64,000 nt of DNA from a virus. The notes under the pieces were generated by a model. It was not told the DNA's origin. It made no database searches and was given only the letters and a program-made list of their open reading frames with translations. Positions 51,143 through 53,129 of this stretch are shown here, in pieces; position 1 is the stretch's first letter; every line of letters begins with the position of its first letter. The DNA is taken from the IMG/VR virus record IMGVR_UViG_3300013426_000031. One strand, written 5' to 3'. The position numbers were made by a program, and so were the translations under genes.

Positions 51143-51802
51143 TTAATTATTGCTACCACGATTACTATACCCCGAACATGCGCCCGTGCATCCGCCTGAG
51201 CAACCACTTGTACATCCATTACCGCATCCAGAGCATCCTTTACAGTTGCCAGAACAAGAACCAGAACATCCAGTGCAATTGGTACAACCCATGCATCCAC
51301 CGGAACATTTACCAGAACACCCACCAGAACATCCAGAACAGCTTCCAGAGCAAGAACCGCTACATCCGCCGGAACAATCATTAGAACAAGCGCCACCGCA
51401 AGCGCCAGAACAACCACTAGCGCATCCACCAGTACATTGAGTATAGCATAAACCAGTACAATTAGAACTACATCCAGTATTAACTCCTTGAATAGGATAA
51501 GTTTTATATACAGCCAAATTAGCTTCTATATTACTCAAAGGAGCATCTTTAATTATTATAGGATGTTCTTCGGTCGCAGGATTATCAGTGTAATTAATTG
51601 CAGTCATAGGTTCTTCAATCGCATAAAATACTTGCTCGGGTATTACACTTCCAGTATCAAAATCATTATTATTTAAAGCATTATTTGCACGGTCAGCATA
51701 TAAAGCAACACTACCATAATATTGACGTCTTGCACATTCGGTTGCCACTTCGGCAAGAAGCTATTTAAATCTATCAGGGGTTATTGTCGTTCCTATTTCC
51801 AT
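51143..51802 (-). CDS. Cys-rich CxGxC-repeat protein #3 (N-terminal ~95-aa region + C-terminal Cys repeats), one TAG
   Basis: AAAGGAG RBS then ATG 51800-51802, which lies inside the last 27 nt of radical SAM #3. In frame through TAG into ORF 51143..51748. Confidence 0.6.
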
Positions 51803-53129
51803 CTTCTGTCATCTCCTTTATTATTTCAAACTCTTCTTTTGGAATAATAGCCAAAGCTTTATCCTCTATACCATTAAAAGATAACCTATATGTTTCTCCT
51901 AATTTTTCATAAATAGAATTAAAATAATACAAAGAAGCAAGAACAGTTGCATAATGCATATCACAAATAAAGGTTGCACGCTTATTCACACTACCCATCT
52001 CTTGATAATTATAAGCAGTACACCAACCGCATCCAGTAGAAATACCACAATCAATACATTCTTGCGGAGATTGTGATTGATAAGTAATAGAGCGTAATTC
52101 TTTAACGCGCAAAGCAGTTAATTCATCTTGTCCAATACCTTTTTCAATATCACCAATATAATATTCTTTATTAGGTCCAACACTATCTTCCATATATCTT
52201 AAACAAGGATAATAGCGTCCGCGCCAATTTAAAGCAAGCATTTCTCCATTGCCACCGCACCAATTCTCATTGCTTTCACTTTTGGTGCCGGGATGCAAAT
52301 AAAATATAGAAAGATAAATCTCTTGCCACAAATCATTTTCCAGAAGATAATCAGCAAGTTTCTTTAATTGCCAATAAAGAGTGGTAGCATGATGAAGTTC
52401 CCAACCTTTTTCATATACACAATTAAGATTAATAGTTTTATAGCCATTCTTAATCATAGATACAACGGCACGATACACATGCTCAACGTTTCCTGGAGCT
52501 ATTGTCATTTTACTGCCGATTTCATTATTATAATGCGTCATGTAATGTCGAACGGCTTCCATAGCTTTTTCATAGCTACCAGAACCATCGGGGAATACTC
52601 TACAGCTATCATGTAATTCTTTATCGCCATCAATAGAAATAGAAAGACCTAAAACATTTTGATTTTTCTTGATATATTCTTGTACTCTTGGATCAAAATA
52701 AAGAATACCGTTTGTGCTAATGCTAATACGATACTTAGTAGCCCAAGGATGATGCATTTCAATCATCTTACTAACAAAATAATCAGTAATTTGGTCAATC
52801 AAATCAATTTCAAGAAAAGGTTCACCGCCAATAAAGTTAATTACTACCGCTGGAATTTCCCATGAATTAATATAACCTTTAATGTCATCATCCGCGCGAA
52901 GCAACTGGTCAATTGCCTTTTTTGCGGTTTCAAATGACATTTTATGATGTCCTTTAAATCCTTGATAGCAATAAGAGCAATTAAGACAACAATCATCACA
53001 TACTTGAAATGTTAAATCAAATACAAGATGGTCAAGACTTGGATAATCCTAATGATAAAGACGCCCAATAAAATTCTAATATTCTTCTGGTTCTTTTAAA
53101 AATTCATTATGCAACTCAGGAAAGAACAT
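51774..53129 (-). CDS. radical SAM/SPASM-domain enzyme #3 (anSME-like), 2 TAG
   Basis: AGGTGA RBS then ATG 53127-53129. N-terminal ...DLTFQVCDDCCLNCSYCYQ (CX3CX2C) joined via two TAG to ORF 51774..52940 (FIGGEPFLEIDLIDQITDYF; C-terminal SPASM cluster). TGA stop. Confidence 0.75.

Follow-up and report, generated by a model that had tools for sequence, protein, structure and literature searches.

The window considered here is a 64,000-nucleotide stretch of viral DNA (IMG/VR record IMGVR_UViG_3300013426_000031) in which, at a site designated locus 3, a gene for a radical SAM/SPASM enzyme lies between genes for a small accessory protein (the helper) and a cysteine-rich repeat protein (the target, Cys3). 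We consider it probable that these three genes constitute a single transcription unit and represent, in a phage form, the CXXX-repeat radical SAM peptide-maturation system, in which the enzyme would modify the repeat portion of the target by the mechanism outlined below. The most likely outcome, by analogy with related maturases, is that thioether staples are introduced into a late phage protein that may form part of the virion. Two further loci of the same kind (loci 1 and 2) are present in the window, which comes from a TAG-recoded gut phage. All genes in the window are on the minus strand, as are the promoter candidate, hairpin and tRNA gene described below, and the DNA is AT-rich (23-43% GC).

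The enzyme gene (51774-53129) encodes a 451 amino acid protein when translated from the ATG at 53129, with another possible ATG at 53135. Its radical SAM motif, CX3CX2C, comprises C47, C51 and C54, and the SPASM region contributes seven more cysteines (C291, C309, C358, C361, C367, C370 and C389). The original prediction, made by reading the DNA without database searches, had noted both features and both are borne out: in an alignment of five homologues (the three encoded in the window, one from another phage and a bacterial one) all ten cysteine columns are invariant. When compared with NCBIfam, TIGR04115 (‘radical SAM peptide maturase, CXXX-repeat target family’, curated cutoff 350 bits) is the top-scoring model by far, with 421.2 bits for the locus 3 enzyme, 428.4 bits for that of locus 2 and a borderline 349.4 bits, marginally under the cutoff, for that of locus 1. 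The models that follow, all scoring far under their own cutoffs, are PapB (176.9 bits), the SCIFF maturase (115.6 bits), CcpM (114 bits) and QhpD (100 bits). The profile search that the original prediction had proposed thus places the enzymes in a curated peptide-maturase family, and by its score the locus 3 enzyme is a member of TIGR04115. The description of the enzyme as anSME-like, by contrast, has to be dropped: the anSME model TIGR03942 gives 73.6 bits against a cutoff of 349 and the likeness is confined to the level of the SPASM subfamily.

The nearest solved structure is that of CteB (5wgg; E 2.5e-23), with the radical SAM core and SPASM domain aligning throughout. The aligned stretch opens at CteB residue 89, and in the phage protein the CX3CX2C motif comes after only ~40 residues; since the alignment begins at this point, the phage enzyme lacks the N-terminal peptide-recognition domain of CteB. 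Pfam returns only the generic Radical_SAM, Fer4_12 and SPASM families and, in PHROGs, the enzyme falls in phrog_1802 (‘radical SAM domain-containing protein’). Membership of a known defence system was considered and rejected, PADLOC giving only weak core similarity to viperins (44 bits).

The target gene (51143-51802) encodes the 219 amino acid Cys3 protein. An N-terminal domain of ~110 amino acids (51473-51802), with the motif I-x-P-x-R-F..L....E..RR..GSV..Y..., is followed by the CXXX-repeat region (51176-51472), which extends from C111 to C209 with the consensus unit C-[ST]-G-[SG] and contains 27 of the 28 cysteines of the protein. The cysteine repeats seen in the original prediction are therefore present, but they span ~100 residues rather than 120 and follow an N-terminal region of 110 residues. 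The repeat is 27% cysteine with small residues in between: the residue at position +4 from each cysteine is again cysteine, Ser/Thr, Gly and Ser/Gly predominate at +1 to +3, and aspartate makes up ~5% or less of the residues between cysteines. Twenty of the 26 cysteine-to-cysteine gaps in Cys3 are of four residues, compared with a mean of 2.8 and a maximum of 11 in 10,000 shuffles of the region; the corresponding figures for the paralogues are 13/20 (Cys2) and 21/26 (Cys1). Counting short gaps of 3, 4 or 5 residues throughout the family gives 537, and 403 of these are exactly four residues long. The repeat opens with a conserved junction motif, (D-)C-x3-C-T-G-L-C.

That the cysteine-rich frame is translated had itself been in question. 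An AAGGAG ribosome-binding site is located 10 nucleotides 5′ of the Cys3 ATG, and in 27 family members the repeat runs on from the conserved N-terminal domain in the same open reading frame (ORF). In the cysteine frame, comparison with two homologues gives pN/pS values (non-synonymous relative to synonymous change) of 0.35-0.40 over the repeat, with 0.27-0.28 in the N-terminal part, and every cysteine is kept in both homologues while the intervening residues vary. On these comparisons the cysteine frame is the coding frame and, because pN/pS is low and every cysteine is retained, an alternate-frame artefact can be excluded. Long alternate-frame ORFs do lie over the cysteine-repeat DNA (5408-5803 and 51127-51429 on the minus strand, 51150-51440 on the plus strand); their products would be Val/Ala/Leu-rich or Pro/Glu/Gln-rich, and frames of the same kind have been mis-annotated in jumbo-phage records.

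Database models of the repeat give only partial matches. TIGR04114, an 18-residue repeat model with a cutoff of 20 bits, scores Cys3 at 18.6 bits, below the cutoff, and finds no match in Cys1 or Cys2; one related phage target reaches 21.3 bits. Pfam family PF27846 weakly matches several members of the target family, a Pfam search with the window targets and helpers gave no matches, and in PHROGs the target weakly matches one family of unknown function.

The N-terminal domain defines a large family. A word-indexed search with a profile of its ~115 residues retrieved 27 proteins, and an exhaustive one ~600 cluster representatives, of which 333 have E <= 1e-10. Nearly all are 150-270 amino acids in length, with the N-terminal domain followed by D-C-x3-C-T-G-L-C and then CXXX repeats. 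Within the domain E-x2-RR is invariant and Y, H, P, A and I are near-invariant, in the contexts GSV-x2-Y, EH and P-L-N-A-I. In the model of Cys2/P0003 the domain is a helical bundle (predicted local distance difference test, pLDDT, 70-88); Foldseek found no fold match for the target model in the PDB and, amongst viral models, only uncharacterised gut-phage homologues. The phage targets have no signal peptide. In the original prediction the non-cysteine region was called leader-like; as a conserved and predicted folded domain of ~110 amino acids it is not obviously a leader. Four family members (P0148, P0180, P0207 and P0263) have an extra domain of ~130-180 amino acids before, or inserted into, the N-terminal domain. 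The extra domains have no Pfam, PHROG or PDB sequence match, and any resemblance to carbohydrate-binding modules is for that reason unsupported. It is because of these fused or inserted domains, and because the order of the two parts is inverted in Cys1, that we regard the non-cysteine part as a probable working domain rather than a discarded leader.

The helper gene (53116-53400) encodes a 94 amino acid protein, contains no TAG codons and overlaps the start of the enzyme gene by 14 nucleotides. The original prediction described a two-gene unit; the pairing of enzyme and target stands, but this third gene was overlooked, and it has a homologue at all three loci, with paralogues preceding the enzyme genes of locus 2 (28857-29099, 80 amino acids) and locus 1 (7131-7349, 72 amino acids). 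A profile of the phage small proteins finds a helper beside the enzyme in nearly all related loci and, in two IMG/VR contigs, one ORF of 538-545 amino acids joins the helper to the N-terminal end of the enzyme (L015 6377-8011 and L019 6382-7995). This conserved adjacency, together with the two natural fusions, argues that the helper works with the enzyme. None of the helpers directly matches an NCBIfam model. In a profile-profile comparison using hhalign, however, the phage helper profile aligned end to end with members of TIGR04116 (‘CXXX repeat peptide modification system protein’) over 83 columns with a probability of 67% and an E-value of 5e-5; a bacterial TIGR04116 member scores 104.6 bits on that family's model. 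The helper and the TIGR04116 proteins are both ~90 amino acids in length and both adjoin a TIGR04115 enzyme, and the helper is probably a divergent relative of this family. The AlphaFold2 model of the helper (pLDDT 94.5) comprises a strand, two long helices and a β-hairpin.

The arrangement of genes at locus 3 suggests an operon. The enzyme and target genes overlap, as originally described, by 29 nucleotides counting the stop codon rather than 27, and the same 29-nucleotide overlap is seen in two homologous contigs (L001 and L013); the overlap of helper and enzyme genes is conserved as well. The best sigma-70-like promoter match in the region (53465-53493; TTGACT, a 17-nucleotide spacer and a TG-extended TATAAT, 11 of 12 hexamer positions matching) is located 5′ of the three-gene unit, as judged by match to the consensus. 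A terminator-like hairpin (53481-53507; an 11-bp stem followed by a T run) closes the upstream gene (53506-53823) and sets the cassette apart from it. Because the hairpin and then the promoter stand upstream of the helper gene, the helper, enzyme and target genes look like one predicted operon.

Expression of the operon would depend on recoding. The locus 3 enzyme gene has two in-frame TAG codons (53076-53078 and 53049-53051) and the Cys3 gene has one (51761-51763), located inside the N-terminal domain, confirming that both genes need TAG read-through. An enzyme homologue (L001) has glutamine at both of the enzyme sites and a target homologue (P0002) has glutamine at the Cys3 site. Taken with the presence of a suppressor tRNA gene with anticodon CTA (24545-24622), which is required for translation of all six enzyme and target genes in the window, this indicates that TAG is read as glutamine. 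The stretch of Cys3 leading up to the TAG (ITPDRFKqLL) can be aligned to the N-terminal end of Cys2, its locus 2 paralogue (ISPTRFINLK), and for this reason we take the long reading through the TAG to be real. The original prediction concluded that the two genes are late products; the dependence on TAG is genuine, but lateness is presumed from the TAG codons, and the operon has its own sigma-70-like promoter and lies outside the structural module. Nine other tRNA genes are found between 26215 and 48601. In-frame TAG codons in the window are concentrated in the tail-fibre-like genes and the three genes for radical SAM enzymes, with as many as 17 in one gene, and many other long genes lack them.

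The three occurrences of the system noted at the outset are real, but they differ in domain order (Cys1) and gene order (locus 2). At locus 1 (4980-7349), the genes are arranged as small protein, enzyme (5817-7115; 432 amino acids, 8 TAG codons) and target (4980-5813; 277 amino acids). In this target, Cys1, the CXXX repeats are N-terminal and are followed by an unrelated domain of 155 amino acids that shows no detectable kinship to the N-terminal domain of Cys2 or Cys3 and no Pfam or PHROG match. At locus 2 (27536-30332), the order is target (Cys2; 29757-30332, 191 amino acids), a 187 amino acid gene (29170-29733), the small gene and the enzyme gene (27536-28864; 442 amino acids, 11 TAG codons). 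The target and enzyme genes are thus not adjacent here, and the small gene and enzyme gene are the sole overlapping pair. These lengths (191, 187, 80 and 442 amino acids) recur in gene calls made independently for this phage on other contigs. At least 24 contigs, the longest of 184 kb, show the same phage, and independent calls on them agree; when 19 kb of the window was searched at the nucleotide level, no match turned up among 50,697 phage records. The 187 amino acid gene, which lies between target and helper, has no family match. Its homologues occupy the same slot in L010, L011, L017 and L018, and a 202 amino acid gene holds the slot in L002, L005, L006 and L021-L023.

Of 21 related loci, drawn from metagenomes, IMG/VR and three metagenome-assembled genomes labelled Clostridium or Erysipelotrichaceae, 20 contain helper, enzyme and target together. 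This pairing, the assignment to TIGR04115 and the appearance of thioether maturases as the next-best models uphold the earlier proposal of a maturase with an unusually large substrate. Two gene orders are seen: helper-enzyme-target, as in window loci 1 and 3, and target-~190 amino acid gene-helper-enzyme, as in window locus 2. Several of the phages bearing the cassette are TAG-recoded and others use the standard code.

The neighbourhood of the cassette is often that of the tail fibre. Locus 2 is directly downstream of a putative tail-fibre gene encoding 753 amino acids (30385-32646), which belongs to a run of tail-fibre-like genes (30385-42125) with tail-fibre PHROG matches for 40524-42125. 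The cassette typically follows tail-fibre genes and is followed by lysis genes (window locus 2, L002/L005, L007-L009, L015, L016 and L020); holin or endolysin genes come after it in L007-L009, L015, L016 and L020. Several tail-fibre-like proteins close with a common C-terminal motif, L-W-I-D/N...G-x-L-K/N-Y...W-x-x-V/L-P/S-V/A-A/V-F/Y-S, at sites in the window (20250-21068 and 33063-33950) and, in unrelated cassette-bearing phages, in L007 (5482-6471), L015 (6067-6351) and L016 (4082-4411 and 11113-11517). Near locus 3, the genes at 53823-55244 and 57240-58841 appear by eye to be large paralogues with C-terminal clusters of CxxC pairs; one of them matches phrog_18912 (unknown function), and a peptidase-like gene between them (55220-56212; phrog_4191) also ends in CxxC pairs. 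Elsewhere in the window, 16668-18179 encodes a 503 amino acid protein matching phrog_850 (‘RNA-binding protein’) over its full length (E 2.6e-128).

How might such a system operate? In the mechanism that we favour, the 94 amino acid helper would act together with the radical SAM/SPASM enzyme, as its adjacency and the two fusions suggest, and may present the substrate. The enzyme would then act on the cysteine-every-fourth tail of the co-translated 219 amino acid protein, introducing repeated intramolecular bridges from cysteine sulphur to carbon, by analogy with PapB, the CteB/SCIFF maturase and QhpD. The tail of ~100 Gly/Ser/Thr/Cys residues would in this way become a densely stapled segment that is redox-insensitive and protease-resistant, the helical N-terminal domain of ~110 amino acids being a conserved part with a function of its own or a role in docking, instead of a leader to be discarded. 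The product would be made only once the TAG suppressor tRNA is active and, going by gene neighbourhoods, would probably be associated with the virion or released at lysis, with a link to the tail-fibre apparatus.

A number of observations weigh against this interpretation. The proposal of thioether chemistry relies on homology at 25-30% identity, the literature yielded no published reaction for any TIGR04115 member, and the +4 residue in the phage target is cysteine and not the Asp/Glu acceptor of the PapB type. The cysteine-rich part of the Cys2/P0003 model has a pLDDT of <50 and is predicted to be disordered. With regard to the helper, the three window proteins gave no match to the TIGR04116 model (cutoff 50 bits) at E <= 1, and the structural model resembles generic helical hairpins only, with no PqqD-like or RiPP (ribosomally synthesised and post-translationally modified peptide) recognition element fold; a PqqD-like winged helix was likewise not seen in the enzyme. 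Locus 3 itself lies outside the tail module, amongst non-structural neighbours with few TAG codons, and its promoter resembles the host type. In addition, no cultured phage was seen to have this target family, a tblastn search of the N-terminal domain against cultured phages returning one uncultured faecal contig only.

Of the other explanations, we regard a classical RiPP or bacteriocin system as unlikely. Here the N-terminal domain would be a long leader (NHLP/Nif11-like) that is bound by helper and enzyme and then cleaved, and the crosslinked core of ~100 residues would be freed at lysis as an antimicrobial or signalling agent of benefit to the phage or lysogen. In its favour, the enzyme's family carries a peptide-maturase annotation, and the products of the enzyme's closest relatives are ranthipeptides and SCIFF peptides; moreover, the cassette occupies a slot, between tail-fibre and lysis genes, in which phages often carry cargo. 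There is also the peptidase-like gene 2 kb upstream of locus 3, but it is in a separate transcription unit, and no cassette contains a protease or exporter. The supposed leader is conserved over ~600 clusters, is predicted to fold and sometimes carries inserted domains, whilst in Cys1 the cysteine-rich part comes first, and a core of ~100 residues with 27 cysteines far exceeds known RiPP cores. The earlier view that the product is probably not a classical bacteriocin is supported.

A cysteine content of 27% with small residues between would also suit a metallothionein-like tail that binds metal or an iron-sulphur cluster, with the radical SAM enzyme as a cofactor-handling partner or a functionally unrelated neighbour. 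The Tat (twin-arginine translocation) signals carried by canonical bacterial homologues such as that of L003 would fit this idea, such signals being typical of exported cofactor-containing proteins. The phage targets, however, have no signal peptide, and QhpC illustrates that SPASM-crosslinked proteins can also be exported. Co-occurrence with a SPASM maturase, together with overlap of the genes and fusion to the maturase, points to a relation of enzyme and substrate, and we think metal binding rather improbable. Oxidation of cysteine (or serine) to formylglycine by an anSME-type enzyme seems very improbable: the SPASM architecture is the same and there is weak similarity to TIGR03942, but the locus 3 enzyme scores 73.6 bits on that model against 421 for TIGR04115, and the target has no sulfatase-type C/S-x-P-x-R motif. 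Finally, the cysteine-rich frame could be an untranslated alternate reading of a GC-rich stretch, as the long open frames on both strands and their mis-annotation in jumbo phages might suggest. The chance of this is practically negligible given the ribosome-binding site, the continuity of the ORF with a conserved domain, the pN/pS values and the retention of every cysteine, all of which speak for the frame as originally read, together with the existence of hundreds of homologues with the same architecture.

Related systems may extend to cultured phages. Relatives of the enzyme, ~25% identical, are found in 87 phage records, mostly of SPN3US-like Salmonella and Erwinia jumbo phages, and the best NCBIfam model for SPN3US gp163 is TIGR04115 (125.6 bits). 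In SPN3US (JN641803; L004, the reverse complement of 137156-144313), three tandem CXXX ORFs (L004 94-486, 497-901 and 917-1123; 130, 134 and 68 amino acids) lie just upstream of two annotated radical SAM genes. The GenBank coding sequence SPN3US_0166 is an alternate frame of the second of these ORFs and the first is unannotated. Erwinia phage Parshik (KX397371) has the same three ORFs (L028 625-1014, 1024-1416 and 1438-1647), of which gp177 and gp176 are correctly framed and gp178 is annotated on the opposite strand. As in the gut phages, a SPASM enzyme sits beside CXXX ORFs, here between virion and tail-assembly genes; unlike them, the jumbo phages have three short targets (68-134 amino acids) and a second, truncated radical SAM-like gene, with no helper homologue seen. 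The jumbo-phage target leaders (~45 amino acids) show no detectable homology to the gut-phage N-terminal domain.

If these strands are drawn together, it is possible, though in our view doubtful, that many tailed phages staple a dedicated cysteine-repeat protein by means of their own radical SAM enzyme and that the product resides in the virion, in the tail-fibre or adhesion apparatus. Just as tentatively, the stapling group would span phages that infect gut anaerobes through to SPN3US-like jumbo phages of Salmonella and Erwinia. Were this the case, phage morphogenesis would include a step that had gone unrecognised, in which structural proteins are crosslinked enzymatically through thioethers; this could confer redox-independent rigidity or protease resistance where disulphides cannot form. 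A crosslinked virion protein would extend phage structural biology by a class of post-translational modification that is new to it, and would supply a new enzyme for iterative stapling of long cysteine-repeat polypeptides; a released peptide, on the other hand, would be an unusually large phage-borne RiPP. The phage variant is a compact, self-contained three-gene unit with a large and easily detected substrate, found beside tail-fibre genes and, we infer, expressed late, and the cultured, genetically tractable jumbo phages (SPN3US and the Erwinia Machinavirus phages) make its biology directly testable.

It remains to set the phage cassette beside systems already described. We found no paper on the chemistry or biology of the CXXX-repeat system, on a phage version of it or on the SPN3US radical SAM protein, and papers retrieved on eukaryotic ‘cysteine-rich repeats’ and a phage attP site concern a different repeat. 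The canonical CXXX-repeat system, which is computationally defined, comprises a TIGR04114 target repeat, a TIGR04115 maturase, a TIGR04116 small protein and a TIGR04119 second maturase; it has been a named family, of TIGRFAMs origin, for more than ten years. An example is seen in L003 (MT837480.1), a faecal contig filed as ‘Bacteriophage sp.’, which has a CXXX target with a Tat signal, a TIGR04115 enzyme (630 bits), a TIGR04119 protein and a 91 amino acid TIGR04116 protein. L003 looks bacterial (Bacteroidales-like) and carries tatA- and tatC-like genes. The phage cassette shares with this system a TIGR04115 enzyme (two of the three window enzymes scoring above the cutoff), a repeat with cysteine at every fourth position, the junction motif C-x3-C-[TY]-G-L-C and an adjacent partner of ~90 amino acids that aligns with TIGR04116 by profile-profile comparison. 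The differences are equally clear. In place of a Tat signal, the phage targets have the cytoplasmic helical domain of ~110 amino acids; the TIGR04119 second (SPASM-only) maturase is missing, a phmmer search with the L003 member finding none in the window or any phage locus; the helper is so strongly diverged from canonical TIGR04116 proteins that there is no direct match; the window enzymes score 349-428 bits on TIGR04115 compared with 630 for the bacterial L003 enzyme; and the cassette is set in tail-fibre/lysis regions, unlike its bacterial counterpart.

Amongst biochemically characterised enzymes, PapB forms six thioethers in a substrate with repeated C-X3-D motifs (PMC12373016). Its model ranks second for the phage enzyme (177 bits, full length), and it offers a parallel in the iterative processing of a four-residue cysteine register by one SPASM enzyme. 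The score is nevertheless far under the cutoff of 340, the +4 residue of the phage target is cysteine and not Asp/Glu, the phage partner is a helper protein of another fold, and PapA (freyrasin, a ranthipeptide) is a short peptide whereas the phage targets are proteins of 190-280 amino acids with 22-29 cysteines. CteB, the closest structural relative, can be aligned throughout the radical SAM core and SPASM domain but has its N-terminal peptide-recognition domain where the phage enzyme has a separate (in two phages fused) helper; the SCIFF maturase model gives 115.6 bits against a cutoff of 425. Both CteB and QhpD make cysteine thioethers. QhpD, also a SPASM enzyme, forms several intramolecular cysteine thioethers in QhpC, which stays a structural subunit. 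If the product is a crosslinked protein and not a bacteriocin, this pair would, by analogy, be its best precedent, albeit that QhpD scores 100 bits against a cutoff of 453 and that QhpC is small and not a repeat protein. Taken together, the sequence comparisons place the locus 3 system within a known kind that has been defined computationally, of which the phage form differs in its N-terminal domain, its lack of TIGR04119, its helper and its genomic neighbourhood.

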